Below, piece by piece: positions 1 to 20,000 of a stretch of 20,000 bases of DNA. Origin of the DNA: Rhizaria sp. SCN 62-66 (taxonomy: Eukaryota); the NCBI GenBank assembly GCA_001724265.1, contig MEDY01000027.1, positions 110,405-130,404 on the forward strand. Direction: 5' to 3'. Both the position numbers and the translations under genes were made by a program. Each line of letters begins with the position of its first letter. Positions within the stretch are counted from its first letter, which is position 1. Under the pieces are notes generated by a model, which was not told the DNA's origin, did not search any database, and saw only the letters and a list, made by a program, of their open reading frames with translations.

Positions 1-14
1 CGCCGTCACGTTCC

Positions 15-6000: not shown

Positions 6001-9000
6001 TTGAGTCGCACGCCGCCGTGCTTCTTACCGCTGGTCTGCGCAAAACAGTTGAGAACCAGTATATCCCTTCAGCACACACCCTGCGCGTGGGTAAGCTTAC
6101 TTTTTCCTCTCTTGATGGTGGTGTTGACGGTGGCGTTGGCAGCGGACTGTGTCTTGAAGCGTCTGTGCGCCTTCCACCGCGTCCCTTCACACGCGGTGCT
6201 GAGGCGCCTGAACAGGTGGACTTTCTCCATCCAGGCGCAGCTGCCGCCATTGTCGGTGCCGCACACGCACATGCTGCGCGCACAACTGCCAGCAAGGAAG
6301 TGCTGAGCGCTGAGGCCGCATCCGTAGCTGCTGCAAATGTGCGTTCTGCAACGGGTGTTTTAACTGCCGCGGCAAAACCTTCTCGCATTAACAACCAAAA
6401 AGAGATGCGCCGCGGTGCACCGGCAGCTGCGCCAGATGAGGTGCCAGGGCGTTTCTTGTCTTCAACGATGGACCCACTGACTCTGCGTTCGGCATCACTG
6501 CTCTCGGGCGCGTGGATGGGCGGAGGCGCCACTGGTATCCCGCATCTTGTCCCACCTGATGCGTCGCTAGTGAGCCCCGCTGAGGGCGCGCTCGCGTCAG
6601 CTACTACTATCCTCGGCGAGCTTAGCAGTCTCAGCACTGGCGGCGTCGCATCTCTCACGCGTGGCGAAAATAATGTAGCAGTACCTCCGCTGATGGCTGT
6701 AAGCGGAGTCATGGCTGCTGCGCTTGCGCACGGACCACTCCGGCCCGCAGACCGCGATGTAACGGTTGTATCTGTGAAGACTGGCCGCGTGGTTGCATTG
6801 GCAGAACTTGTTGCTCCGAAGCATGGTGCTTCAGGTGGCAAAGTTACACTTACATCGACATCCAAAGTCATCGCTGAGAGTAACACTGCATCAGTGACGC
6901 AGAAACAACAAACCCTAGATATGACGAAACCAGGTGCTGCACTTCTTGAGCAAGACTTGACGCCCGGCTTGCGTGCCGTGCTTTCAAGTGCTGTAGCGGG
7001 TCAAGGCGCACGCACTACTCCAGTCGCGATGCGCGAGTCACAAGCTCAGTATTTGAGTGCGGAGGCTGGCCTGGTAAGTTACGTTGGTATAAACAAAGCA
7101 CTCAAAGACTCAGCGTCTGCAGTTCATGCAGCAAGTGGAAGTGAAGCTGCTCCTGATGCGCACGCGAATGATGCTGTCGTTGCAGCAAGCGCTGCGGACG
7201 CAATGCAACGCGCCAACTCTGTTGCTCGTGCTGCGGGTGCCGCGCGCGACACTGCAACGCCCGTGAACGAGTTCATTACTGTGGCTGTTACGAAGCAACC
7301 GACTCTTCCTCGTGCCGTCAAGGTTGACCGCGTTGTAATCGCGCAGGAGCTTGCCATTGCGGCACAAGAATCAAGCCTTGCAGCTGCGGCTGCAGCCAAA
7401 TCAGCTGCAGCTGTGGCAAAGCAAGCTGCCGCAACTGTGTCTCAAGCTGAAACTAAGCCTCACTATGCCCAAGCACTTGACCGCGACGCCGGAACTGCCT
7501 TTTCTGTCCGTCAAGACGGTGCTGATGATAATCTGCACAAGAAGAAATCTTCAGCACCTGTGCATGAGTCAGAATTTTTTGTAGAAGCCAAGAACAAGTA
7601 CACTGCACCATCGGCGGCTCTTCGCTCGCTCATTACGCGCGGTCCTACGTCGCTGGTCTCGCGCAGCGAACGCGAGGCGCAACTTGACGAGGCTGCGGCG
7701 CGCGTAAGCAAGCTTGCTGAGGCTGATGAAGATGAGGCCTCTCAAGCTCAAGATGATGATGACAACGATTTTGATGCTACAGACGCATGGCTTTTAGGAC
7801 TGGACCCCTCTGACTTTTCTGCACGCTCGCAGGCGGGTGCACCACTTACCCTGCGTGAGACGAGTGCACTTGTCTCAAAGGCGCGTCATGCGTTGACGGG
7901 TTCGCTGTCAGTCAAGTCATCAGCACCCAGTGCTGTGGCTTTTGCATCACAGTACAATTTGCAGGCAGATGCTCTGCGTGCGCTGCCATCAGCGAAGCCG
8001 CTGGCGTCGCATGGACAGGACGATGCGGCGGTTCGATCGGTCTCGCGGTCATCCCGCGCGGCGGCAGAGTTGTCTCGGCAGGAGCGTCTGCGCGTGGTCA
8101 ACTGGCTGAGTTCATTCTTAGCCGATGTGGGCGACGTCGACGACGGAGTTGCTGATGATCTATGGATGGTACCCTCACTCGCACCTTCAGCTGCAGCTGG
8201 TGCCGCCGCCGCAACTGTCACCGAAGAAGCCCGATTGCGCGCACGACACGAACGTTTGCGGCGTCTTGCACTGCCAAAGCGGCAGCCGGGCACTGCGGGA
8301 CTGTCAACACAGATGATTGCGCACGAAACCAAGGGTGACGCCACAGCCACTGCGGCCCGCTTCTCAGCCTCAACGCTTATTGCACTTGAAGATCCTTGGG
8401 GCAGCCGCCTTCGCAACAAGGGGGAGGCTGCACTGCGCCGCCGTGCTGTTGCTGCGATTGGACTTTACTTGACCCCCGATGATGCCGGAAAGGCCCTCGC
8501 AGCGACGATGGCGCAGACCACCGCTCGTGAGACGTTGCTTCCCTCTCATTCGCTCCCAGCCGCTTTCACCTCCGGTGTGCGGCTGAATCCTAGCACAGCT
8601 ACCTCTGGTGCAATTTCAGCTACAGTGGTTGCGAACAGTGAGCAAGACGACGAAAATCGCGCGTGGGAAGCGTTGCGCGCGCTAGCTGACGCCATTTCGC
8701 GGCCGATTCCTGGCCCCACAGTCTCTATGGCTGCTGCAGAGGCCGCTGCCTCCGAGGCTTCTGCCATTGTTGCCGAAAAGCACGCCGCCATGACAGCCAC
8801 AGGGCTTTGCGATGAAGATAAAATCGTAGAAAACAAATCAAAGACCGTTTACGCACCGTTCACACTGGTATCGATTGAAGGCGTAGCGTACGGTGAGACT
8901 GCGCTGACAGACAGCTTAGCGGGCGCTACTGTGCGGCTGCCAATGCCCGACACGGACGCTACAGTCACAGCGACGAACTTGACTGCACGTGCGCCACCAT

Positions 9001-12000
9001 TGCTGTCATTTTCTGATATTACGCCTAACGTGTCACTCCCGCTTCCGTCAACGGCAGCCGCTTTAATCGATCTCAAGAATCAGCGCTACGTCAAGCATAC
9101 GCCGCGCCTGTTTGAAGGCCGGCAGGCTGCCAAGCTGCGCGCAGCGCTGGCGGAGCGGGCGTTCCACACCAGGTTAGCGGCACTTATTAAGCGTGAGGGT
9201 GAGCGGCGTGCGCGAGAGATTGCTCGCGGTGAGGACCTCATGCTTGACGAGTTTACGGTGCCCGCAGAATCTGCGGGGACGTGTGCCAGTGCGCTATTGG
9301 GCTCTGGTACTGGTGATATCACGCCGCGACTTGATGGTGATGTGTATCAGCAGACTCCCACGCGTGGGCGGTCTAGCAGCCGCGGTGAGTCCAGTGGCAG
9401 CCGCAATGGTTCGCGGTCGCCCTCACGCACAGGTCCGACGCGAAGTCGTACTCTTGCAGCGGTGTCACCGCAGCCTGATCGGGCCAGTGGTGGCGCTCGC
9501 TTTGAGTATGACGCTGCGCAAGATGAGTGGGTTCTTCGGCGCCCAGAAACCATGTCGCCACAGCTGCGCCGCAGGCTCGCGCAAGCTGATAGTGGTTGTG
9601 ACTCACATGGGCCAAGAAGCGCAATTGATGGTAGCGGTCCGCCCCAACAAAAGTTTCTCTCCTTCTCTGCTCTTGCGCGTCAAAGCGCACAGATGCCCTC
9701 GACTTCTGTTGTGCCGCAAGTTGGGTCTGAGTCTGCGATGCTCGGGGCCGCAATGTCACGCTCACTTAACGCATCCGCTCGCCTGGCTGATGGTGATGCC
9801 ACAGCTGCGGTGGTGTTGCCCTCCGCCGCACTGACTGCGCGCCGCTTTGTTCACAACGCTGCTCTAAATGCAACCAAGCAGCCAACTTCAGCTGAGCCGC
9901 AGCCTGAGGATGGCGACTTGACGCAGCGTCAGCGCTTGTCACGCTTCGAAGTGCGCCATCACAGTCTTGGTGACCTTAACATGGCGCTTGCCCCCGAGTC
10001 AGCGCAGAATGTTGTATTTGACTCAGGATCTATTGCTGGGACTGCGCCTGTGTCAGTGCCATTGCAGCAAATGAATGAAGTGGAGAACGCTCCGGCGCGC
10101 GTGCAACCTGTGTCTGCGATGCGCCCAGCACAACCCGAGTACCACATGCATCGCGACCTCTGGGAACAAGCTTCTAACGTTGATGCCTCCGCATTGCCGT
10201 CTGCAGACAGTGTTATTCCGGAGGGCATGCTTCGCTACGCCCCCGCCACAGATAAAGCACCCGCACCTCTTGTGCCTGCACCCACTGCGGAAACGCACGC
10301 GACGCGAGTACTCGGTGGTGATGATGGGGAGCAGGTGTACTCGCTGTTTGACTTTGGTGCGACGTTACCATATGTGCCTTCTAAACTCGTAACGGCGAGC
10401 ACAGTGGCTGGCCGTGGCACTGCGACGACGATTGCAGAGGATGAACATTTCCGTTCGATCGTGGTGACGTCACAGCTGGTTGACCTCTACGCCATCTTCC
10501 GTGCGCATCTGGAGGCGCGTGAGCGCTTTATCACTGACGCTGCCCGAGCTTCTGCTGCTGCCACAGCCGCTGCTGCTCGCGAAGGCGACGCGCAGGCTGC
10601 CGCTGCGCCATTGGACGCGCCTGCTGTGCTCTCAACACTGGGCTCTGACGGTGCAGCGCAGTACGTGACACAATGGGTGAGCGGCCGCGTGCAAGGCATG
10701 ATGGCGGGCCGGCCTGCGGCGGAGCAGCGTGCAGCTGTGGAACTGTTGGCCGATCTTGTGCGCGGCGCGTCGTGGTCGCACCAAGTTGCACTCTCACGGC
10801 TCCGCGACCGCGTCTCAGTTGAGGTTGCCCGTTGTGCTGCTCGTGAAGGCTCAGGCCCCGGCGCTAGTGCCGCGCTCGCTGCTGCACTGCGCTCCGATGG
10901 CCGCGCCAAGGTTGTCCCTCCCCCAGCAGGTCCACGTGCTGGGGCAGATGAGGGCGATTACGCTGACGCGCTGCGCAAGGACGAGCTTCGTCGCACGCAG
11001 ACCGGTGTGACATGGGTCGCCCCTGCCGAAGCTTCTGATGCACTGGATGTCTCCGCGCGACAATGCCAGGAGGACCAGCGTGCAGTGACCAACGACGCCG
11101 TGGCGCGGCTAATCAAGTCTAGCGCGGTGCCACTGGGTGCGGACAATGCGTTGTCAGCCACCGCGTTGCCGTTGCCATCACCGCCTGCAACTTTGAGCAC
11201 TGTGCCGCCCACTGTGGCCCTCAATCTCTCGCACACACCGACCCCAACGTCTGCTGTGTCTACATTGAGCGCACAGCGCATGGGTAGGGCATCACTGCTG
11301 TCGGTGGACATCTCAAGTGACTCGAACCCTTCGTCTGCAGCAGGATCCCCGGCCGCAGGGTCGCGTATTCACTCACCGCCGCTGGCTGCCGCGCTCGCCA
11401 CGCCGCTCGCGTTTGCCGGCGCATGGTCTGGTGCCGGTTTTACGCCCCGTAATGGGACTGGCAGCGCAAGAGACCAGCGGCCCGGGTCGATCAAGCCGCC
11501 CTCGCGTCCGCAGTCACGCCCGCCGCCGGACCAGCAGCGCCGCCGCCGCGACGTCGCGCCCGTGGTGAGCCCACGCAGCAGCGCTGCAGCCATGGCCGCG
11601 ATGCAGGAAGAGGTGCAGCGCCAGCGCGCCAAGCAGGGTCTCACGTCTGCAGGTATTTATACGAACACTGCCAGTGGCGGCCTCGCACCGCTCTGGGGCG
11701 CGACTCCTATGCAGGACCGCTCCGCACGTGTGCCAGCCGCTGGTCGGCGCGAGCTTTTCCCCGAGCTTGGCGGCAGCAGCAGCGCTCGTGGTCCTACAAC
11801 AACACTGCACAAGACCAAGAGCAAGAGTACGGTGGCAGACGCGATCGACGGAACAGGTCTGGGTGTGACTGAGCACATGGACCGCTTGCGCGAGCATGCG
11901 GCCTTTGCAGATGCAGTTGCTACTGGCACAATCGCTCTCTACAATACGCCCCCTGTTGTCGCACCCGTGCCGCAGCAGTTGCGTGCCCCGGGCCAGGTTC

Positions 12001-12035
12001 CCGATGCCCTTCCCAACATCACACGGCGTAACTAA
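15..12035 (+). CDS. Giant (>=4006 aa) Ala/Ser-rich, largely low-complexity protein with cyclic-nucleotide-binding (CNB/CAP_ED-like) domain(s); may start upstream of the window
   Basis: 12 kb with no stop codon, ending in TAA followed by an abrupt switch to AT-rich sequence. Consistent codon pattern (GCT, GTT, CTT, CGT/CGC). The frame is also open from base 3 to the ATG at 15, so the true start is unknown. CNB motifs at ~3399-3818. Confidence 0.85.
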   Translation: MSRSPFSQHRSGLPPHVSPVISMPQSISPMPSHSTAAFVTVDAPSVAHTLTTVQGLHRVAVRLVTPSVRAAVNTFLTSNQPGVAAAAPASTSLPMTSLDIPVSGQVTRPRDPSSPGTQPALGRVGISLARPPSRQAASMAALSSQRHLVSGCLRAPALKGVSRFIVAAGSVVATRIAASNRALAPFASPAHVVRAHELRCSAIHSVEAAARSRAAAAAAAARMVQQSREANQRVVESLIHPHTSGASATGSDVRSKLRKNPRSLGQHIPHNADLAAGADIVFDADDEVLFADEGEEEDIHINRPSSANLHHQQETANVAHTAPQRLPHKKDSSGDNKNSFSKRGVNMTEAEEHFLNALFGPDVLSSPPSLPLLSFPFPVTPVGFVAAGGSAAIALPTSADPPARVGTTASLELSVMRSTSRSAPAAAASVLLRVRVPVFSLSAPAPQVFTVDFEGFSRTAAHALAACKAPAGAAETLAALTAFHRRVETFRAQHRTAAADNAAGAMSDRVAAVLWQTLHGAALPTCDSEADTWALLGTAYGGVVPLAAAGSSFATDAAALGSSALHATATGINAGLTSSLPTSATPARYNALSLTSAPYVARALLFSPIAHRTAPAAGFAALSGADGLFTAMAANAAEFEASSDKLHSSSAARTWSSSRNAVWGDLPFLYATYGISTASFGRGSAATEFPTIATGSGAPISLVFPAADHDATVRATAATVAEGIAVHAQASIYGAAPLRSHGFVSVEEAQSQPSLNKQVLSWYQAAAVPQNKTAGATRVLQRTTSSACDANDHAWRTLSALRVPSSVDDVLEAIDNERLLVVSAALQTLAASGYGDHVVAVAESTDTPASGALNAATVCAKHMGDVSTAAADNNRTLAAVSEDWIVWRVAAPNTLMLCFDDPSDEHAIYSKVEHTKKRFLLDTVPVFKRFFGRAGSSNEAVGALSIPEEDSAAAAAVIPGSPTAAAAAANSLAAAAVAGNTAAQLATVEPVEIEPSRFKQALDSVANKGLGSGSNLYQARTQLLARVPDSRPTTSSSSTSESDRARARPRVEINKEALAAAESQGLLFTPDTDSAKSFTFTTNNADGPRVPLGTPIASSSLSIAAALGMSKESTTPVPGGTGIATYLYYDNATRAAICNAFGWRTVVKPGTVLIKEGEECDKMFIIYRGVCRIEKAVELVVPRSGTSLSASASAIGVQEKKDSVLARVNLRNLHLGLITSGQLAGDESCLLAGPSPVTVCTVTANTEVFVIAREAVLRLFPPSLLRHLTSDARERLMWHHHRLSHILERLNPITAVVAAAAQSGILADIQPAERRLGPYELPSIIALERDARARDTSELSLSVDVLQVMRRSAAFATTRNKLVAAGMGDISLAGRGGGVLPALSTLTAAFGSNPALLNSVVRPTVPINTKVKSAAAVAAAAPGVFSATLSLKNSVGGNHADGALRDPLTGQLMPTEVVDPMTGISTPFQPRSGAAADQALGVSSKSRADLPLKDLVERSRAFLAKELADAALQDGTREHGAGYLTGSALLHAAKRYLHEGALTGVPASTSHQQQLNGRRHAFNATSMASGKPKRQVTVRRVAGGLSTMVAGVESSVSSSLTAETKATIAKREGVTLSTDLATRLTPISSASPATHSRAEACLQLAQRIDAQRLRRTQQDFAPPVWYAQTTLGADTAATSKVHRPLEELETKSVAAPTATTEIDGTVLPAPSQSEQPVMTVSELAVSSVAALYAQQQARARYRPALPVAALHSAIARHIDHVRRGAASITADGLDATAAKLGTLTPTAELPVLPTLPMFVDESAPASLSDSDPDLRSSRRDPDNERDERLCKPAAQAASAELDPELVAMALEPTLNSESAFRVTTLLAAAEERERLASDSTARLRNGEFDADMDNDLLPMRGPIDAAMFTRFRGTESGIKPGDAVNVAAAAAGSNPASSIAAFGSAALASSASATGPLRSPDDPLAPGTGPHGGTAGSGFVNSSEEVAMPYFKYQGFESHAAVLLTAGLRKTVENQYIPSAHTLRVGKLTFSSLDGGVDGGVGSGLCLEASVRLPPRPFTRGAEAPEQVDFLHPGAAAAIVGAAHAHAARTTASKEVLSAEAASVAAANVRSATGVLTAAAKPSRINNQKEMRRGAPAAAPDEVPGRFLSSTMDPLTLRSASLLSGAWMGGGATGIPHLVPPDASLVSPAEGALASATTILGELSSLSTGGVASLTRGENNVAVPPLMAVSGVMAAALAHGPLRPADRDVTVVSVKTGRVVALAELVAPKHGASGGKVTLTSTSKVIAESNTASVTQKQQTLDMTKPGAALLEQDLTPGLRAVLSSAVAGQGARTTPVAMRESQAQYLSAEAGLVSYVGINKALKDSASAVHAASGSEAAPDAHANDAVVAASAADAMQRANSVARAAGAARDTATPVNEFITVAVTKQPTLPRAVKVDRVVIAQELAIAAQESSLAAAAAAKSAAAVAKQAAATVSQAETKPHYAQALDRDAGTAFSVRQDGADDNLHKKKSSAPVHESEFFVEAKNKYTAPSAALRSLITRGPTSLVSRSEREAQLDEAAARVSKLAEADEDEASQAQDDDDNDFDATDAWLLGLDPSDFSARSQAGAPLTLRETSALVSKARHALTGSLSVKSSAPSAVAFASQYNLQADALRALPSAKPLASHGQDDAAVRSVSRSSRAAAELSRQERLRVVNWLSSFLADVGDVDDGVADDLWMVPSLAPSAAAGAAAATVTEEARLRARHERLRRLALPKRQPGTAGLSTQMIAHETKGDATATAARFSASTLIALEDPWGSRLRNKGEAALRRRAVAAIGLYLTPDDAGKALAATMAQTTARETLLPSHSLPAAFTSGVRLNPSTATSGAISATVVANSEQDDENRAWEALRALADAISRPIPGPTVSMAAAEAAASEASAIVAEKHAAMTATGLCDEDKIVENKSKTVYAPFTLVSIEGVAYGETALTDSLAGATVRLPMPDTDATVTATNLTARAPPLLSFSDITPNVSLPLPSTAAALIDLKNQRYVKHTPRLFEGRQAAKLRAALAERAFHTRLAALIKREGERRAREIARGEDLMLDEFTVPAESAGTCASALLGSGTGDITPRLDGDVYQQTPTRGRSSSRGESSGSRNGSRSPSRTGPTRSRTLAAVSPQPDRASGGARFEYDAAQDEWVLRRPETMSPQLRRRLAQADSGCDSHGPRSAIDGSGPPQQKFLSFSALARQSAQMPSTSVVPQVGSESAMLGAAMSRSLNASARLADGDATAAVVLPSAALTARRFVHNAALNATKQPTSAEPQPEDGDLTQRQRLSRFEVRHHSLGDLNMALAPESAQNVVFDSGSIAGTAPVSVPLQQMNEVENAPARVQPVSAMRPAQPEYHMHRDLWEQASNVDASALPSADSVIPEGMLRYAPATDKAPAPLVPAPTAETHATRVLGGDDGEQVYSLFDFGATLPYVPSKLVTASTVAGRGTATTIAEDEHFRSIVVTSQLVDLYAIFRAHLEARERFITDAARASAAATAAAAREGDAQAAAAPLDAPAVLSTLGSDGAAQYVTQWVSGRVQGMMAGRPAAEQRAAVELLADLVRGASWSHQVALSRLRDRVSVEVARCAAREGSGPGASAALAAALRSDGRAKVVPPPAGPRAGADEGDYADALRKDELRRTQTGVTWVAPAEASDALDVSARQCQEDQRAVTNDAVARLIKSSAVPLGADNALSATALPLPSPPATLSTVPPTVALNLSHTPTPTSAVSTLSAQRMGRASLLSVDISSDSNPSSAAGSPAAGSRIHSPPLAAALATPLAFAGAWSGAGFTPRNGTGSARDQRPGSIKPPSRPQSRPPPDQQRRRRDVAPVVSPRSSAAAMAAMQEEVQRQRAKQGLTSAGIYTNTASGGLAPLWGATPMQDRSARVPAAGRRELFPELGGSSSARGPTTTLHKTKSKSTVADAIDGTGLGVTEHMDRLREHAAFADAVATGTIALYNTPPVVAPVPQQLRAPGQVPDALPNITRRN
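3399..3818 (+). other. cNMP-binding-like domain within the giant ORF, with a degenerate phosphate-binding cassette
   Basis: VKPGTVLIKEGEECDKMFIIYRGVCRIEK ... LGLITSGQLAGDESCLLAGPSPVTVCTVTANTEVFVIAREAVLRL matches the CNB pattern (GxxIIxEGxxGDxFYIIxxGxV ... GxxFGExAL...PRxATVxA...xxxxLxR). Canonical GE and PR read GD and PS here. Confidence 0.8.
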
Positions 12036-12056
12036 AAACACATTCACGATACTAAC

Positions 12057-12141
12057 GTACTCCTAGTACTAGCACTAGTACAGTACTAAGTCCGTGTACT
12101 GTACTGATAATACTAGTACAAATGTAAGTACAAAAAAGTAC
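12057..12141. repeat. GTAC-dense palindromic tract just 3' of the giant ORF
   Basis: Nine GTAC tetramers in 85 bp. Perfect palindrome CTAGTACTAG (12063-12072). 10-bp inverted repeat AGTACAGTAC (12077-12086) / GTACTGTACT (12096-12105). Confidence 0.8.
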
Positions 12142-12440
12142 TGTAGTATTAAAAGTATCTCACCACAATTTACAATAGCAATGCAACCTCATTCAATTCA
12201 ACAACCTTATTTTATGTAGCAAAACTTTACTTTATCAAATTCAAATACCAATAAACGACTTTTCCTTTCCCCAACACACATACTCACACACAATGTCTAA
12301 CCGTCAACAAAAAAAGTTTGTCCGACTCAGAGAGGAGCGAAGCGGAGCGGAGCAGCAAAAAAGAATGCCGCGCAACGTCCGCGCGGGTGGGAAGTTGCGC
12401 CAGACAGCGGCGAAAGCGTGCGCGGAGGGAGCAAAAAGAC

Positions 12441-12450
12441 AAAAAGAAAA
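12441..12450 (-). terminator. RNA polymerase III oligo-T terminator of tRNA copy 1
   Basis: Minus strand reads TTTTCTTTTT directly after the acceptor stem, with another T5 at 12437-12433. Confidence 0.75.
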
Positions 12451-12522
12451 GGTTCTAACGAGGATTGAACTCGTGACCTCAGCTTTACTAAAGCTGCGCT
12501 ACTACCACTGAGCTATAGAACC
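12450..12522 (-). tRNA. tRNA-Thr(AGT), copy 1, discriminator T73, no intron, no encoded CCA
   Basis: Cloverleaf GGTTCTA-TA-GCTC AGTGGTAGT AGC-G-CAGCT TT AGT AA AGCTG-AGGTC-ACGAG TTCAATC CTCGT-TAGAACC-T. 7-bp acceptor stem, 5-bp anticodon and T stems, A box TAGCTCAGTGG, B box GTTCAATCC. Confidence 0.92.
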
Positions 12523-12993
12523 GTACGATTGTTGGGTTCCGCGCTGAAAAATTAGGGTATTAGTAGTAATTTACAACTCACAATTTTTAGAAGTGTTGTA
12601 ATCATCATTAGTCGTTGACCAGACATAAACTGGTCAAAAGTTTTCCTTTCGATCAAAAGCATGAGCAACACATTTTATAAGTGCTTATTATATCAAAGTC
12701 GACACATATGATGAAATGAAAAGGAATTAAAAGTCGCTGTTCGGACGACGGACAGATAAGCCAATAGAATTCTGGGAATAGCGAATAAACATAAGAGTAC
12801 ATGTATTCTTCGAGAGTTTAAATCATGGAGACTTACAGCGCTACATTTGGTCCATACTAAAGTAAGTAACGTTGCTTAGGTCACCAAAGTGGCCCGATTA
12901 TAACACAAAATATAATTGGAAGTGACAAAAACTGTTGTTTTTCGCTTTCAGAAGCAGCAGTAGCAGTAGCAGCAGGAGCAGTCGGCGACTTGA

Positions 12994-14490
12994 TCACTGC
13001 GAGATGAAGAGATTAGGCTCCTCGCGCTTGATCCAGTGGAGCACGCGATGGCTGGCCGCAAGCGCAGTTTCCTTGGACGTCAGCGGGAGAAACGTTGCGT
13101 AGAGCTCAAAGTCGCCTGGCCGCACGATCCCGAGCACAACAGCGTCCTGCCCGACTTCGTAGTAGAGCGTGTGGCGCGTGCACGCGGCCGCGGAGGCCGC
13201 CAGCGCCTTGGCCGTCTGCTGTGCGAGCGCGGAGCGGCCCGCGTCGGCGGGCTGCGGGTGCCCGCCGGCGAGCGCGCCGCACGCGCGCTGGTAGCGCCGC
13301 AGCAGTTTCATGCCGCCCGCGTCGGGCGCCGCCGAGTCGACGTACGGCTCCGCGGGCGCCGAAGTGACGAACTGGTTGAGCTGCATAGAGCGGAAGAGGA
13401 AGTGGCGCAGGTCGGGGCTGCCGACGGCGATGTCGTCGACAGTCCACGCCTGCAGCGACATGGCCTCGGCCAGGTCCTGTGTCAGCTCGCGCGAGTCCAG
13501 CACCTTGCACACCTCGCCGCGGGCCTCGCGCAGCGCCTTGACGTCGCTGGGGTCCGTGGTAACAAAGGCAAGGCACACGTCGCGCGCCACGTAGCTGGAG
13601 TAGACGTACACGAACGAGTCGGGCGAGTGGCACGGCAGGCAGAACGGCGCCCACGAGTCGGACGACCGTAGCGACTGAGAGTTGGTGAGGAAGTTGGTCA
13701 GCAGCAGCATGTCGTTGACGTACAGCGGCGCGTCCTTCTCGCGGCTGAAGGCCACCAGGCGGCCGCCGGCGATAAGCACGGAGTACAGCAAACGCTTGCT
13801 CTTGCCCTTGGTGCCCTTCTTGAGCGCGGTGAGGATCTTGGCGCGCGAGGCCTTGTTCAGGCGCAGCGCGGGGACGGCGTCAAGCAGCAGCGCGGGCGTG
13901 CGCTCGGCGTCGTTGATGACGTCGTGCAGCATGAGCTCCGTGCCGGCCATGAGCAGGCGGATGTCGTACGTGGGGTGGTCCTCAAGCACGCGGTGCACGC
14001 TGCCGCTGAGCACGCTGAGGATCTGCTGGTGCGCGAGCGAGAGCTGCTGCTGCAACTGCGACACCGTCTCAGGCGAGCGTGAGATGCACACCATGTAGAT
14101 CGGCCCGCGGAACAGGAAAACAAACTTGTAGTCGCCAGCGTAGATGGCCTGGATGTTGTCTCCCAGCCGTTGGAAGTTGGCGATGAAGGATGACATCACG
14201 CCCATGAAGTCGGAGATCTCTGTCTCGTCGCCGTAGCGCGAAAAGATGGGACGGCCCGCCCAGCTAAAAATGAAGATGTGCTTCTCGTGCGCGTACCACT
14301 CCGGCATGCGGTGGTTCTGGTGGATGTACTTCTGCACGCGATGGTGCTTGGCCGCCCAGTATGAGTTCGAGTTGGCGTCATCCTCCGGCGTCGACGAGGT
14401 TGGCGCGTCTACGCTCGACGGAACCGTGGTTGCCAGCGGCGCCACCAACGTTGACGCCGAGGAGGCCCGAGAGCGACTCCCTTGAAGCAT
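12994..14490 (-). CDS. MON1: Vacuolar fusion protein Mon1/SAND (subunit of the Mon1-Ccz1 Rab7 GEF)
   Basis: 498-aa ORF with family motifs KHIFIFSWAGRPIFSRYGDE, FLFRGPIYMVCIS, YDIRLLMAGTE, DMLLLTNFL, WAPFCLP, LRHFLFRS, FELYATFLPL and C-terminal WIKREEPNLFI. Strong C/G third-position bias. Confidence 0.95.
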   Translation of the reverse strand: MLQGSRSRASSASTLVAPLATTVPSSVDAPTSSTPEDDANSNSYWAAKHHRVQKYIHQNHRMPEWYAHEKHIFIFSWAGRPIFSRYGDETEISDFMGVMSSFIANFQRLGDNIQAIYAGDYKFVFLFRGPIYMVCISRSPETVSQLQQQLSLAHQQILSVLSGSVHRVLEDHPTYDIRLLMAGTELMLHDVINDAERTPALLLDAVPALRLNKASRAKILTALKKGTKGKSKRLLYSVLIAGGRLVAFSREKDAPLYVNDMLLLTNFLTNSQSLRSSDSWAPFCLPCHSPDSFVYVYSSYVARDVCLAFVTTDPSDVKALREARGEVCKVLDSRELTQDLAEAMSLQAWTVDDIAVGSPDLRHFLFRSMQLNQFVTSAPAEPYVDSAAPDAGGMKLLRRYQRACGALAGGHPQPADAGRSALAQQTAKALAASAAACTRHTLYYEVGQDAVVLGIVRPGDFELYATFLPLTSKETALAASHRVLHWIKREEPNLFISQ

Positions 14491-14982
14491 CGCAAGAGAG
14501 CGTTCGTGTGATGTGCGAGTGGGCTGCTCAAAGGGAGGGCGAAGGAGCCGAAAAGAAGAGAAGGTTTCTATAGCACCGGAGATGTTTCAGAAAGTGCAAA
14601 AAGGAAATGAGTAACATTTCTTCAGGAAGCAGTACAAACAATTACACACAGTGCTATTGATGATTAATCCATGACGTGTTTTGTTCTTTTCTGTCGGCCT
14701 TCGTATCTCCGTCGTCTCGCGCCAGTCGTTCGTTCGCAAAAAAAGATGATGGCCTCTCGACATTTGCGCAAGGTGATACGCCGTGTAAGTTCCGACAGGA
14801 GAGTGACAACTATTGTATGTTGCTTATCTGCTTTAATATTATGCGTTCTATTTTTTAACTTTTCTCCATAGCTTTTCTTCCTGCTCTACAGCACCTGATT
14901 TGACCCTACTCAGACCCACAGAGAACTCTTAAGAACCTGCGACGCGCCGTGCTCGGTGGCCACAGACCCTGACTGACACCAG
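14491..14982. promoter_or_regulatory. Divergent intergenic region (probable bidirectional promoter and 5' UTRs) between MON1 and the ERGIC gene
   Basis: 492 bp, AT-richer than the flanking CDSs, between head-to-head start codons. Pyrimidine tracts upstream of both ATGs. No specific promoter element confidently identified. Confidence 0.5.
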
Positions 14983-16176
14983 ATGGACTCGCTGCTGGAC
15001 GAGCAGCATGGCGTGGAGATGAAGTCCTTGCTGTCTTCGACGCAGGACACGAGCACAGTCCCGCTTGTGAGTGCCGCGTCGACGACTGCTGACGTGGACG
15101 ACGATGATGACGATGACCAAACCTCGTCCAAGGCCTTCCTGCGCTCCGACGACAGTGAGATGACCCTCCGCGAGCGCTCCACGGGAGCGAGCAAGTCTGC
15201 CGCGAAACGCTTTACGAAGTTCGTGGCCAAGGCCGACTTCTTCCCTAAGGCCGAGGAGGAGCTGACAGTGCATACAGACTCCGGCGTGGCGCTGTCCATT
15301 GTCACGCTCGTCGTCATCGCACTGCTCTTCGCGAGCAATCTGCTCGCCTACCTCTCGCCCGTCACGCACGAGCACATGACCGTGGACGCGCTGGCGGGCG
15401 AGCGGCTCGACATCCGGCTCGACATTGAGTTCCACGCGCTGCCCTGTTCGCTGGTCAAGCTGGATGTGATGGCCGTCACTGGCGAGCACCACGAGGCGCT
15501 GGCGCAAAACATCGACCTCACCCCGGTCCCGGCCTCGGCGCGCTTTCCGCAGGACGGCTGCCGCCTCGCGGGCTTTGCGCGCGTCACCAAGGTCGCCGGC
15601 AACATGCACGTCGCCGTCGGCTCCGTCGAAGCGGGCTCTGCGCACCACCGGCACAAGTTCTCGCTGCGCGAGCTCAAGGCCTTCAACTCCTCGCACACGG
15701 TGCACGCGCTGTCCTTTGGCGCTGCCTACCCGGGGCTTATCTCCCCGCTTGACGGCGTCACGGCCGTCGCCGCCGCGGGCCCCACGCAGTACCAGTACTT
15801 CATCAAGGTCGTGCCTACGACCTACGCCGCCGAAGGCGCGGAGCCCGTGGCCACAAATCAGTACTCGGTCACCGAGCGCGCCACGGTCATCGACACCAGC
15901 GCCGCTGCCGCGGGTGCGGGCGGGATCCCAAGCGTGTTCTTTGTGTACGACTTCTCACCGTTCCGCGTCGTGATCGAAACGGCGCGGCCGCCGCTGTCGC
16001 ACTTCTTGGTGTCTGTCTGCGCCGTCATCGGCGGCGTCCTCACGGTCTCGGGCATTGTGCACTCGCTCTACTACCACGGGACCAGGGCCGTCGCTGCCCG
16101 CCGCGCCGCGCGCGCGCTGCAGGCCGACCTCGACGGCGGCCACGCGGGCATGCAGTCGCTACTCTCGCCCCGGTGA
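14983..16176 (+). CDS. ER-Golgi intermediate compartment protein, Erv41/Erv46 (ERGIC1-3) family
   Basis: 397 aa. ADFFPKAEEELTVHTDSGVALSI plus TM1; LDIRLDIEFHALPCSLVKLDVM; GCRLAGFARVTKVAGNMHVA; FNSSHTVHALSFG; YQYFIKVVPTTY; TNQYSVTE; GIPSVFFVYDFSPFRV; FLVSVCAVIGGVLTVSGIV (TM2). The paralogue cannot be assigned by eye. Confidence 0.95.
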   Translation: MDSLLDEQHGVEMKSLLSSTQDTSTVPLVSAASTTADVDDDDDDDQTSSKAFLRSDDSEMTLRERSTGASKSAAKRFTKFVAKADFFPKAEEELTVHTDSGVALSIVTLVVIALLFASNLLAYLSPVTHEHMTVDALAGERLDIRLDIEFHALPCSLVKLDVMAVTGEHHEALAQNIDLTPVPASARFPQDGCRLAGFARVTKVAGNMHVAVGSVEAGSAHHRHKFSLRELKAFNSSHTVHALSFGAAYPGLISPLDGVTAVAAAGPTQYQYFIKVVPTTYAAEGAEPVATNQYSVTERATVIDTSAAAAGAGGIPSVFFVYDFSPFRVVIETARPPLSHFLVSVCAVIGGVLTVSGIVHSLYYHGTRAVAARRAARALQADLDGGHAGMQSLLSPR

Positions 16177-16821
16177 GTTGAGATTGCGGCTGCGTCTGCA
16201 TGACCCGAGCTCTCGGCGCGCTCTGGCTGCTTTATGGGCGGGCGAAGAAGTCTTCCGGCGATGTCGTGGTTGTGCGCTTTTGCGAACTTGTTGTGTGAGT
16301 CAGTGACTTTCTGCAAGATGGAGTCCTGCTTCGCGCGATCATCATAGTGACTGTGCGAGTGGAAAACCTTGTTGGCTTGCTTTGGATTGCGCTATATGAG
16401 AGTGTATTGATGCACATACGGCGACTTGCTGGTTGTGTTTGGGCCAATGTGTCCACTATTATGCACAACTATCTCCATGTTTACGTGTTATCTAGGTTGT
16501 AAGGGGAGCGTAAAACATGACACAAGAACAACTGATTGAATAAAAAAACGACTATGTATGATAACCATTCCACGTTTGCGATGATATAACAAAAATGAAT
16601 GGCCCTGGTTGATCACAAACAAACAAAATCTACAAAAATAAACAGTTAATCAATAGTCACAACAAGCAAGAGATAAAAACGATCACAGGCGTGCTTTTTT
16701 GCAACACAACAGTGGGTCGTATTGATCATTGCGTTGCATGCGACAGAACAACATAACTTAATTTTCACAAGCAGTCCAACTCGACAGCAAAAATGAGGAA
16801 GCTTTCACTCGCGCGTTTCGC

Positions 16822-17937
16822 TCAGTTAGCCATGTGGAGCTGGTTGGGCGCGATCCCATGCTGCTCGAAGACGGGCCCAGGGATGAGGGCCTTAAGCTCC
16901 TCGCCGAGCGAGCGATAGTAGGCCATCTCCTCGACCATGCCCGCGGCGCCGGCCCAGTCCTCGGCGGCGAAACGCGGGGCCAGGTCGCGCGCGAAGTCGG
17001 CGAGCCGCGCCTCGTTGGCGGAGAAGATGCGCATCAGCGTCTCCGTGTCGCCCGCGTCGGCCGCGTCCGCGACTTCCTCGCGCAGCTCCATGATCGTGGC
17101 CAGCACTTCGCCGCGCGCGGTCGGGCGCGCGCCTTCGCCCACGAGCGCGGGCGCGCGCAGTGAGAGCAGGTAGCGCGCGCGCGCCAGAGGGTCCGCGAGC
17201 GTGCGGAAAGAGGTGTTGATCGCGGCGGCGTGCGCGGACGAGTACTCCTGCTCCTGCTCCGACTTGGTGCAGAACCGGTCCGGGTGCACGCGCCGCTGCA
17301 GGCTCTTGAAGCGCGCCGCCAGCGCCGCGGCGTCCAGGTCGTACGTTTGCGGCAGCTCGAAGAGCGAGAAGTGGTCCGTGGCGAAGGGCGGCTGGATCGT
17401 GCCGCAGCTGGAGCAGAACACGCCGGGGCATTGGTGCGCCTGCTTCACGGGACACGCCCAGCACAGCGCAGCCGTCGGCGTGGCGCCACAGGGACCGACG
17501 ACGACGCCAGCGCCGGCGCCGGCGACGTCAGAGGACGAAGACGCGGCTGCGGGGCCGCAGGCGGAGGGAGCGCATGTCGTGCCACAGGAGGAGGAGGAGG
17601 AGTTGGGGGAGTTGCGGGAAGACTGTAACGAGCACGGGGCGGCCGGAGGCGCGGGCTGCTTGGTGAGCGGACACGACGGGGGCGCGCCGGCGGGCGCCGA
17701 ATGCGAGTGGTGGCAAGTTCCGCAGCAAGCGCCAGTGTGGGAGAAGTGAGCCACCGAGAGAGTGAAGGGAGTAGTCGCCGAGACGGAACACGACGTGCGT
17801 GGACGCACGGATGGGGCGTAGACGGGTCCGTATGTCGGGCGGAGCGCAGAGAGCTCCGTGGTTAAGCACCGCGAAGCAGCCGAGACAACTGTCGATCCTG
17901 CGAAGAGGCTGCGCTGAAAAAAAGTCCTGGCCAGCAT
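16822..17937 (-). CDS. HSCB: Mitochondrial Fe-S cluster co-chaperone HscB/HSC20/Jac1
   Basis: 371 aa. Arg/Ser-rich presequence-like N-terminus; CWAC...FCSSCGTIQPP tetracysteine motif as in HSC20; J domain DHFSLFELPQTYDLD...LQRRVHPDRF; INTSFRTLADPLARARYLL; acidic C-terminal helix IMELREEV...MAYY. Confidence 0.95.
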   Translation of the reverse strand: MLARTFFQRSLFAGSTVVSAASRCLTTELSALRPTYGPVYAPSVRPRTSCSVSATTPFTLSVAHFSHTGACCGTCHHSHSAPAGAPPSCPLTKQPAPPAAPCSLQSSRNSPNSSSSSCGTTCAPSACGPAAASSSSDVAGAGAGVVVGPCGATPTAALCWACPVKQAHQCPGVFCSSCGTIQPPFATDHFSLFELPQTYDLDAAALAARFKSLQRRVHPDRFCTKSEQEQEYSSAHAAAINTSFRTLADPLARARYLLSLRAPALVGEGARPTARGEVLATIMELREEVADAADAGDTETLMRIFSANEARLADFARDLAPRFAAEDWAGAAGMVEEMAYYRSLGEELKALIPGPVFEQHGIAPNQLHMAN

Positions 17938-18936
17938 AACAGGCGTTTTCTACAGAATAATGAATAATGGAATCAAAAAGAAATCGTGAGAATACATACA
18001 GATTGTGCGACAAACGAGTAAGCACAAGGATATCTTCGCTTGAATATTCGGAGGAACGAGAGTCCGATTGCGATTCCCTGATGTCCGACCTTCGAGGACC
18101 AGTCCGCATCTGACACGCCGCCGCGCGGTTGGTTTTGCAGGTTAATCGCGTTCGCCCCCTAAACAACGTCAGATCGCTTTGAGATTTGTTATCTTAATTA
18201 ATCTATGGGATTAAGTATGTTTTTCAAACGATTTCTCTTCTTTTGCTGAAATACGCTGCCTGCTGGATTCGCCTCTGTATGGTGCACCTGGTGCTTGGTG
18301 AATGTGGGCGAATGTGCTGCGGTGATGCCGTCGCCGCATGAGTGAAGCAATGTAATGGATTTCTGACGTTGTTTTGGTAGTGCATTGATGGTTGACGATG
18401 CTGTTGAGCGATGATAACAACTATTTGAAGGCTGAATGAGCGTGCATACTGGGTAATAGATCAATGTGGCCAAGGTTCGCAACTCGTCCCGTTTGTCTCA
18501 GCTGTCTCATTTGTTGCCGCATATCGACTCGTACATCTTGATCGATCGACTGCGTTTTACTTAGCTAATACACACTGAGGCGGTGGAATTTGCGTCTAAT
18601 TAAGCTTGTTCTGGCGAGTGGGCACCTTAAGTGGTGCAGCAAATGCAAGCCAAGGCGACAATGACTGGCATCGAGAGCGTTGTGCATGTTACATTTAAGC
18701 TTGTATGTTATTCTTTAGGGTAAAAAAGTTAAACAGTTTTCTATTTAAAAACAAGACAAGGGTTTTATTGCGAGATTCGTTGTTCTATACAGAAAAATCA
18801 GTCAACAATTGAGTTCTCACAGTGCTCGTAAATTACTATTAATACTTTAATTTTTGGGCTCGATCCCCAACAATAGCACCGTTCATCAGTAGCGACTCAA
18901 TAGCGAGTCGTTCACAGACTCCGGCTGCAATCGTAC

Positions 18937-19009
18937 GGTTCTATAGCTCAGTGGTAGTAGCGCAGCTTTAGTAAAGCTGAGGTCACGAGTTCAATCCTCG
19001 TTAGAACCC
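18937..19009 (+). tRNA. tRNA-Thr(AGT), copy 2, discriminator C73, anticodon at 18970-18972
   Basis: Positions 1-72 identical to copy 1, with the same cloverleaf and A and B boxes. Confidence 0.9.
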
Positions 19010-19061
19010 GCTTTCGCCGCTGTCTGGCGCAACTTCCCACCCGCGCGGACGTTGTGAGGCA

Positions 19062-19070
19062 TTCTTTTTT
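19062..19070 (+). terminator. First plausible Pol III terminator for tRNA copy 2 (TTCTTTTTT)
   Basis: Only TTT occurs between the tRNA end (19009) and the T6 run at 19065-19070. Confidence 0.6.
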
Positions 19071-19403
19071 GCTGCTCCGCTCCGCTCTGAGTCGGACAGA
19101 CGTTTGTTGTTGACGGTTACACATTGTGTGTGTGTGTGTCGGAGCGGTTCTGCATGGGAGGCGCGATCCAAAACATCTCCGTCCCGGTGCAAATGTCACA
19201 CTCTGCGTATTTGGTGTATTAATACTGATCGATATAAAAATACACGTCAAAATGTAATATGGCTTTTTTGTTTGGATAATAATTTCATGTTTCCATTGCT
19301 TTGGTGTAATGGTATTAATAAGGTCAATCTTCACGATCTGAAAGGGTCTCATTGCGATATCCTTCTTGATTGTCAACTGACGATTGCGATGCGGCCGTTT
19401 TGT

Positions 19404-19469
19404 TTGTACATGTACATGTACAAGTATTAATACATACTATTAATAGTATTCATGTACGTATGATATCAT
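19404..19469. repeat. Chain of abutting perfect palindromes
   Basis: TTGTACATGTACATGTACAA (19404-19423), GTATTAATAC (19424-19433), ATACTATTAATAGTAT (19434-19449), TACGTA (19455-19460), ATGATATCAT (19460-19469). Confidence 0.9.
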
Positions 19470-19692
19470 CTTTTGCATAGTTTGCTCAAACATCATTAAA
19501 ACTTATGTTCTCATCGATCTTACGTACGTGTGCATATGTCCCTCTCATTGTGATTGGTCTCTTTGAAACGTTCAATAATGTTGTCGATCTGATCCGTTGG
19601 TGCTACTGCCTTCCCTGTCTTTCGTCGAGTTACTTGCCCTTTGAGGATTGCATACCTCTTTAATTGTCTTTCTGTTAGTTCGTCGTCCTCGC

Positions 19693-20000
19693 TTACTTCG
19701 CAGGCTGCTGCACCTGCTTAGTGGCGGTGATGAGGATGTCGAGCGCCGTGCTGGCCGTGTGCCCCGTCGCGGGACGGACGTGAGCGAGGTACGCGAGAAG
19801 CGAACCGTAGTGGGGATCCTGCTCGTCGGTCCACCTGCAGGTGACCATGAACTTGTGCAGCATTACCAAGTCCATGCACGTCGACGCCGTCATGTTGATC
19901 TCCGGGAAACCCGCCTCCACCAGTACGCTTCGGCACCCGAGGTTGGCGGGCACCGCCTCTTTCACGGGGCGCACAAACTCGAGGTCGATGACGAGGTAGC
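19693..20000 (-). CDS. 3' end of a gene running in from beyond the window; probable atypical protein-kinase-like C-lobe
   Basis: Frame is open to the window edge: ...YLVIDLEFVRPVKE...MTASTCMDLVMLHKFM...LLAYLAHVRPATGHTASTALDIL...K*. C/G third-position bias and an AT-rich 3' flank support coding. IDLE, DLxxLxK and RP...TAxxAL resemble kinase subdomains VII, IX and XI. Confidence refers mainly to coding status; the product call is tentative. Confidence 0.65.
   Translation of the reverse strand, partial: YLVIDLEFVRPVKEAVPANLGCRSVLVEAGFPEINMTASTCMDLVMLHKFMVTCRWTDEQDPHYGSLLAYLAHVRPATGHTASTALDILITATKQVQQPAK

Follow-up and report, generated by a model that had tools for sequence, protein, structure and literature searches.

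The window analysed here is a 20,000-nt stretch of contig MEDY01000027.1 (positions 110,405 to 130,404, forward strand) of Rhizaria sp. SCN 62-66 (GCA_001724265.1). Three protein-coding genes, namely, MON1, ERGIC and HSCB, lie between two identical tRNA-Thr(AGT) genes that point away from each other. Both tRNA genes carry common flanks, thereby forming an inverted repeat of approximately 300 nt per arm. The features are as follows, in window coordinates:

3..12035, + strand: giant intronless open reading frame (ORF), 4010 aa, 5′ open, with a weak cNMP-binding match
11694..11724, + strand: stretch of the giant ORF with an inverted relic at 19140–19170 (26/31 identical)
12062..12142, no strand: TAGTAC/GTAC palindrome tract, 308 nt downstream of the left tRNA
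12278..12574, − strand: left arm, taken as the source copy; without the 57-nt upstream segment in the assembly
12419..12450, − strand: 32-nt segment with the poly-T terminator for Pol III, which the assembled right arm does not have
12450..12522, − strand: tRNA-Thr(AGT), left copy (tRNA call)
12994..14490, − strand: MON1, three longin domains (Pfam), single copy
14983..16176, + strand: ERGIC/ERV vesicle protein (Pfam), paralogues 37–40% identical at most
16822..17937, − strand: HSCB co-chaperone (Pfam), single copy
18828..19139, + strand: right arm, taken as the derived copy (inverted alignment)
18871..18927, + strand: 57-nt segment upstream of the tRNA, present once in the assembly and in both arms in public contigs
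18937..19009, + strand: tRNA-Thr(AGT), right copy (tRNA call)
19140..19170, + strand: inverted giant-ORF relic, 31 nt, abutting the right arm after a deletion of approximately 550 nt
19176..20000, − strand: truncated member of a dispersed repeat, with a kinase-like gene and then a decayed integrase (rve), running to the contig end
19404..19457, no strand: GTAC tract inside the dispersed repeat, approximately 400 nt downstream of the right tRNA

The identities given to the three enclosed genes in the preliminary description are borne out by Pfam. Only these genes lie between the arms; they have no pathway in common, and the block contains no recombinase. ERGIC or HSCB was found beside MON1 at 0 of 80 MON1 loci, which were at most 49% identical and of which only 12 were at least 8 kb long. 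Another MON1 protein (P0002) is 72% identical, and its locus lies outside the 80 compared.

The inverted repeat is real, and so is the gradient of identity described for it. Aligned in inverted orientation, the arms yield pieces of 81 nt (100%), 78 nt (97%, 76/78), 66 nt (88%) and 57 nt (79%). Homology reaches 50–200 nt past the tRNA, and no homology between the arms was detected inward of the 79% piece (P 0.83 and 0.99). Apparent homology of the outer flanks (shuffle P 0.01–0.02) was produced by the low-complexity GTAC tracts. Indels had been overlooked: in the assembly, the right arm is without 32 nt (the poly-T terminator) and without 10 nt relative to the left arm, and the left arm is without 57 nt relative to the right. 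Among 120 tRNA genes, only the right tRNA-Thr and one other have no T-run at a distance of 20 nt or less. A third tRNA-Thr copy, on contig C44, is also identical to both arm copies, and the start of the 32-nt terminator segment is common to the left arm and this copy. The tRNA-less flank was found in the two arms alone, the DNA search counts being lower bounds. The 57-nt segment at 18871–18927 folds as a hairpin (z −3.9) and matched no Rfam family. Its identification as a decayed tRNA was rejected, as it scores no better than shuffles (P 0.08–0.46).

The right arm is followed outward by the 31-nt giant-ORF relic, which had also been overlooked and whose match was reached by 0 of 1000 shuffles. 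The right arm can therefore be read as a decayed inverted copy of approximately 0.9 kb of the left side. The relic is short, and at this place a contig of one public run (X1) carries 13 unaligned letters past 19139.

The kinase-like gene on the right is present as described; it has no Pfam match, and its language-model look-alikes are kinase-fold clusters (0.94). An integrase core (rve, E 2.5e-10) is carried by the copy of this dispersed repeat on contig C420; in the window copy, a broken remnant of it survives within 19176–20000. The earlier statement that no transposase is visible is thus accurate for the inside of the block and inaccurate for its right neighbour. Sequence of the tRNA or the arms is absent from the integrase repeat at 8/8 other loci. 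The 25-mer at the right edge (19289–19313) is part of the dispersed repeat and also occurs on C478, C420 and C292. Its faint similarity to 12187–12165 is attributable to chance: when left 12150–12277 was compared with right 19176–19400, the score of 13 was reached by 24% of 1000 AT-rich controls.

GTAC-rich tracts were confirmed on both outer sides. Palindromic TAGTAC tracts occur approximately 200–450 nt from many tRNA genes in the genome, and the outer mirror image arises because such a tract lies near each of the two tRNA genes. The proposal of one mirror-symmetric element is consequently abandoned, since the kinase-like gene sits in a dispersed repeat, the edge similarity is chance and the tracts lie near tRNA genes genome-wide. 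The right tract is absent from other copies of the dispersed repeat and was apparently gained in place. At 11 loci with TAGTACTAGTAC and without a tRNA, no Rfam match above the cut-off was obtained; one of them, on C41, starts with a tRNA-Thr(CGT)-type trailer. The tRNA-linked TAGTAC tract is a more unusual feature here than the inverted pair. Literature on TAGTAC tracts beside tRNA genes or on inverted tRNA pairs in Cercozoa was absent from the matches listed among open-access main texts, and the available part of PMC13746701 did not bear on either.

Four of 15 listed public runs (X1, X3, X4 and X6) were compared as short-read contigs, with small-share runs set aside. These contigs indicate a perfect arm core of approximately 220 nt, which is longer than in this assembly. 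In X3, the 57-nt segment and the inner flank of the left arm are joined on one contig, and contigs of X1 and X4 end with exactly 3 mismatches and 11 loose letters, as a 57-nt segment in the left arm predicts. Both large arm indels of the assembly conflict with the public contigs. X1 contains separate left (to 12402) and right (19025–19139) contigs, and its 6.4-kb inner contig runs into the repeat at both ends. Given this arm-specific sequence in public runs, the repeat is real and doubt is limited to the two indels. Contigs of the compared runs break at the arms, and none spans an arm among the records listed. The locus illustrates that short-read assemblies may misreport inverted tRNA arms. 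Contigs of X6, an RNA run, extend over the region of the right tRNA, although contigs cannot show expression. A 30-nt window pattern matched 0 viral contigs.

Gene conversion between the arms had been proposed from the falling identity. The 100% identity of the tRNA genes gives no support, since the C44 copy shares that identity in full. At the non-coding site 18909, X1 carries T at a depth of 70.9/70.9 versus 35–39 for single copy, and X4, X6 and the window carry C; depth in X4 is 8.7 versus 6–8 for single copy, so that two copies are unproven there. That the two arms have this variant in common in X1 is supportive but thin evidence for conversion.

A pair census covered 120 tRNA genes on 54 contigs as an incomplete sample (63/506 candidates scored plus 88 pattern hits). 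At distances of 2.5 kb or more, 11 same-tRNA pairs were inverted (7 contigs) and 3 direct (2 contigs), whereas pairs less than 1 kb apart comprised 2 inverted versus 12 direct. Counted per contig, the inverted excess of 7 versus 2 is not significant (p 0.18), and pairs are not independent. The inverted pairs on the 7 contigs are spaced 2.5–22 kb; four of them share the following flanks:

C90: 400 nt, 87%
C404: 284 nt, 78%
C647: 955 nt, 63%
C621: 104 nt, 98%

C621 and C647 are contigs bounded by their tRNA pair, and the pairs on C647, C238 and C266 enclose no long ORF. The occurrence of inverted pairs on 7 contigs indicates that the tRNA-Thr locus exemplifies a habit of this genome and is neither a cassette nor a SINE.

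Taken together, the tRNA-Thr pair probably represents the remains of an old local inverted duplication, with its tRNA core kept identical by selection and conversion and with no dedicated enzyme taking part. At least 0.9 kb (11694–12574, comprising the giant-ORF end, spacer, tRNA-Thr and upstream flank) would have been copied across MON1-ERGIC-HSCB to the other side, most likely during repair of a staggered break or through template switching in replication at the tRNA gene; the same event may also have inverted the block. At yeast breakpoints, an approximately threefold enrichment of tRNA genes is described in the available part of PMC2675101. The outer part of the copy has decayed through deletions and now abuts the unrelated kinase/integrase repeat, as the sequence shows. 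The core, approximately 220 nt in public contigs, would stay identical through selection on the tRNA and conversion between the arms, to which the evidence points indirectly. An inverted pair could be retained over time, as crossing-over between its members flips the block and spares the three single-copy genes from deletion, by established logic applied here to this locus.

Four other explanations were weighed. Appreciable flipping of the block by homologous recombination in the core, with both orientations in populations, is compatible with the duplication and would add to it; we consider it unlikely. The long identical core, the X1 variant, the breaks of contigs at the arms and the C621 and C647 contigs agree with flipping, as do inversions at tDNA-containing breakpoints among yeast strains reported in 10.1101/2022.10.04.510633. 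However, no listed run record spans an arm, the inner flank is only 79% identical and the outer flank carries indels, which fits rare exchange, and conversion without crossover accounts equally well for the shared variant. It is rather improbable that the tRNA genes and TAGTAC tracts are kept as putative chromatin boundaries insulating three housekeeping genes from neighbouring repeats. Barriers formed by tRNA genes and TFIIIC are known in yeasts, HSCB is separated from the decayed integrase repeat by the right tRNA, and among repeat copies the tract arose only in this one; against this, the gene adjoining on the left is an ordinary one, pairs elsewhere (C647, C238 and C266) enclose no long ORF and the enclosed genes belong to no common pathway.

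A tRNA-headed SINE family, or a dedicated cassette that can be inverted or mobilised, as the preliminary description envisaged, is very improbable and largely contradicted by copy number, even though a decayed integrase adjoins the right arm and the 57-nt hairpin could serve as a recognition site. MON1 and HSCB are single copy, ERGIC has only distant paralogues, the block encodes no recombinase and the non-tRNA flank was found only in the two arms, in searches that give lower bounds; moreover, the integrase repeat carries no arm sequence at 8 of 8 other loci, and the outer arm contains host coding sequence. The idea that a collapsed tRNA repeat produced the arms as an assembly artefact can be given almost no weight: the two conflicting indels, the missing T-run of the right tRNA and the contig end 1 kb beyond favour it, but X1 has separate contigs for both arms and an inner contig entering the repeat twice.

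With the local inverted duplication as the preferred reading, the locus is a clear yet ordinary example, one of at least 7, of tRNA genes multiplying and seeding small inversions. In this poorly studied, probably cercozoan genome, the inverted pairs that persist lie kilobases apart, and direct ones mostly within 1 kb of each other. A broader and rather doubtful proposal is that Pol III genes are marked by palindromic TAGTAC-type tracts approximately 200–450 nt to either side, arising in place even within a repeat brought beside a tRNA and serving to phase nucleosomes or to mark boundaries. Combined with the genome-wide habit of inverted tRNA pairs, such tracts would split the genome into small tRNA-bounded flippable domains, with MON1-ERGIC-HSCB as one. 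Should the tracts prove to mark Pol III genes in chromatin, a boundary feature encoded in sequence would be known for a eukaryotic supergroup whose chromatin data are very scarce.

Several known systems resemble this locus in part. Like tRNA-derived SINEs, the arms contain a tRNA sequence followed by a common 3′ flank; unlike them, the tRNA is intact and functional-looking, the flank occurs in two copies only, the 5′ flank is shared too, and no tail or target-site duplication was seen at the arms. Inversion switches between inverted repeats operate at methylotrophic yeast mating-type loci and in bacterial invertase systems. These likewise enclose few genes, whereas no recombinase and no orientation-dependent gene or promoter is present here, and the arms are short and decaying. 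Fission-yeast centromeres contain tRNA-bearing inverted repeats. Outward-facing tRNA genes around a central segment are common to both, but the centre here consists of three protein-coding genes, and the arms span approximately 300 nt instead of kilobases.

Kellis and colleagues reportedly described in 2003 yeast inversions flanked by opposed tRNA genes, often of the same isoacceptor. As with tRNA genes at yeast rearrangement breakpoints, the subject of Gordon et al. 2009 (PMC2675101), identical opposed genes stand around a short gene block at this locus, as possible recombination substrates. The present pair differs in that homology extends 50–200 nt past the tRNA, the pair probably stems from local duplication and the arms contain no Ty/LTR-type element. 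Inverted duplications at inversion breakpoints were attributed to staggered breaks by Ranz et al. 2007 (PMC1885836), in the part of the text available. Unlike the cases described there, the duplicate here holds a tRNA gene whose copies remain identical, and inversion of the block would be presumed rather than read from an outgroup. As in those cases, both ends of the block carry, in opposite orientations, an otherwise single-copy stretch that takes in part of a gene; it extends over hundreds of bases at approximately 88% identity and decays through small deletions. The colinear inverted pieces, the falling identity and the abutting giant-ORF relic thus point to the 'D-block-inverted D' anatomy of staggered-break inversions in that account (PMC1885836).

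The analysed assembly is eukaryotic and comprises 34.9 Mb in 714 contigs, with the window forming the final 20 kb of contig C27. The nearest named homologues of MON1 came from Paulinella (40% identity), which suggests that the source organism is probably cercozoan. The outward-facing, inverted tRNA-Thr repeats of the preliminary description were present as four matching pieces of 81, 78, 66 and 57 nt (100%, 97%, 88% and 79% identical, respectively) separated by indels, and the identities of the enclosed genes MON1, ERGIC and HSCB were borne out. Comparison of the arms in this assembly showed 57 nt to be missing from the left arm, and 10 nt plus the 32-nt poly-T terminator to be missing from the right. 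The following features were used:

3-12035, plus strand: giant ORF
12278-12574, minus strand: left arm
12419-12450: terminator segment (32 nt)
12450-12522: tRNA-Thr(AGT), left copy, outward-facing
18828-19139, plus strand: right arm
18871-18927: 57-nt segment
18937-19009: tRNA-Thr(AGT), right copy, outward-facing

The locus is a real inverted duplicate, with its source on the left, decay outward and single-copy cargo. MON1 and HSCB each had a single match in the genome, and the ERGIC paralogues were only 37-40% identical. The flank minus the tRNA occurred nowhere beyond the two arms (search counts are lower bounds), and the earlier proposals of a mobile cassette, tested on cargo and flank, and of a SINE family, tested on flank copy number, both failed. 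The gene sequence is also identical in a third tRNA-Thr(AGT), on contig C44, whose only further match to the left copy is the start of the terminator. Positions 19140-19170, abutting the right arm, match bases 11694-11724 of the giant ORF in reverse complement (26/31, colinear), a score reached by none of 1000 shuffles (either strand, 12 kb). Copying thus went from the left side: the right arm is a copy of at least 11694-12574, afterwards shortened by about 550 nt. The ORF itself exceeds 4000 aa, is intronless and of low complexity, and its sole domain match was a weak cNMP-binding one.

The wider mirror layout around the block falls apart as a unit. A dispersed repeat fills 19176 to the contig end, with 77-83% identity to contigs C478, C420 and C292 and partial copies elsewhere; a kinase-like gene is followed by a decayed integrase (rve core in the C420 copy, E 2.5e-10; a broken remnant in the window). 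This repeat is unrelated to the inverted duplicate, and tRNA or arm sequence was found at 0/8 of its other loci (4-10 kb fetched each). The faint edge similarity claimed earlier lies within it on the right side and scores as chance, being reached by 24% of 1000 controls. Across its copies (window 19176-20000; L004, L005, L195-L202), the repeat spans at least 2 kb and pairs a kinase-fold gene with a decayed rve integrase; stops or frameshifts interrupt many of the copies, and several copies lie at contig ends.

Public runs were compared for 4/15 of those listed, from three studies and as short-read contigs throughout; no contig among the listed run records spanned an arm. One X3 contig, over 96 letters, continued from 12537 in the left inner flank into opposite-strand sequence at 18866. 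At the 12518 end, the inner contigs of X1 and X4 showed 11 loose letters and 3 mismatches, and they stopped at 18895, exactly as would be expected if the 57-nt segment were also in the left arm. The X1 depth of the terminator segment was 61.6, near the summed depths of the outer contigs on the left (34.7) and right (27.9), and a contig of the RNA run X6 diverged directly past 19008; together, these indirectly suggest that the right arm has a terminator after all. A T-run lay within 20 nt of 118/120 tRNA genes, the right tRNA of the window being one of two exceptions. From these contigs, depths and T-runs, the two large arm indels either vary between strains or are errors of assembly, and the arms have an identical core of about 220 nt.

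Gene conversion between the arms received indirect support at a single site, 18909, which reads T in X3; X4, X6 and the window all have C there. In X1, T accounted for a depth of 70.9 of 70.9 (single copy 35-39), and one population's variant fixed in both arms is a conversion signature. The C-to-T variant preserves, as G-U, a pair of a stable hairpin (18866-18936, z -3.9) immediately 5' of the right tRNA; this hairpin, which had no Rfam match, may represent a small RNA or the relic of a fold-back.

The inverted tRNA-pair layout recurs in the genome. An incomplete sample covered 120 tRNA genes from 54 fetched contigs; where identical genes on one contig lay 2.5 kb or more from each other, the pair was inverted in 11 cases (7 contigs) and direct in 3 (2 contigs). 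Inverted/direct counts were 14/7 at 1 kb or more and 2/12 under 1 kb (Fisher p 0.005, pairs non-independent); counted per contig, they were 7 vs 2 (p 0.18). The premise that dispersed tRNA paralogues share little flank holds poorly here; 48/237 different-contig pairs also shared flank, many via neighbouring tRNAs in clusters.

Shared flanks of inverted tRNA pairs
C90: 400 nt at 87%
C404: 284 nt at 78%
C647: 955 nt at 63%, three nested outward pairs
C621: 104 nt at 98%, ordinary genes inside

Inverted same-tRNA pairs spaced 3.6-22 kb apart were observed in L019 (C621), L023 (C90), L020 (C404), L024 (C266) and L017/L018 (C238); the C621 pair encloses a nitrilase-family gene and a phosphatidylinositol-transfer gene. 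The entire contig L141 (G000:C647:1-6819) is a decayed mirror with nested outward Gly, Asp and Glu tRNA pairs, in which no Met-initiated ORF exceeds 120 aa; it may be an old palindrome or a centromere-like region. A 130-nt hairpin/MITE-like repeat lies near several tRNA loci (L164 1085-1297; L143, L146, L022, L023). A repeat end of ~100 nt is common to contig breaks in L167, L168, L036, L028 and L172, three of the five being tRNA loci. In L022 (C504, 501-698), a tRNA-Asp without its own terminator precedes a partial tRNA-Gly-like piece and a tRNA-Arg, a possible dimeric transcript or assembly collapse.

Genome-wide, palindromic TAGTAC/CTAGTA tracts cluster on both sides of tRNA genes at about 200-450 nt, e.g. 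in L141 (C647), L021 (C504, 1842-1965) and the window (12062-12142). The sequence TAGTACTAGTAC had 48 genome matches vs 9 for the reversed control; the 48 fall at 28 sites, 16 of them less than 600 nt from a known tRNA gene. With hexamers picked after they had been seen, density peaked at 250-300 nt both upstream (15.8 per kb) and downstream (12.0 per kb), against 0.45 per kb in a 200 kb control; tracts lay upstream of 27/116 genes and downstream of 25/110, with none in the control. By unbiased count, the top 6-mers of tRNA flanks were CTAGTA, GTACTA and AGTACT, giving 50 tracts in 29/61 records at a median of about 265 nt from the tRNA gene; 34 kb of non-coding control DNA held none. The right tract of the window, an insertion of about 44 nt, also occurs in contigs of X1 and X3. 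The three other repeat copies covering the site lack it, and it appears to have been gained at the copy next to the tRNA, arising de novo or with the left tract as template (the two agree at 23/30). Our best guess is that the tracts serve in nucleosome phasing or as a boundary, the rival being a mutational by-product; a strict tRNA link is opposed by the 12/28 sites with no known tRNA nearby, by one tract adjoining a kinase-repeat copy without a tRNA, and by the shortness of the control spacers.

Staggered-break inversions leave the anatomy of segment, block and inverted segment seen here (PMC1885836), and template switching at a tRNA gene would be expected to yield the same anatomy; tRNA genes are fork-pause sites (10.1101/2020.01.29.925644; PMC8150848). 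Either route may apply: no syntenic relative was present among 80 loci, only 12 of which were 8 kb or longer. Repair of a break at the tRNA gene probably gave rise to the duplicate, and the pair would persist since inverted copies could not delete the essential block. Matching tRNA-associated rearrangement was reportedly described by Kellis in 2003. The locus likewise matches the known tRNA-associated rearrangement of PMC2675101. It is a further case of that already known rearrangement, and the tRNA-linked tracts deserve a second look.
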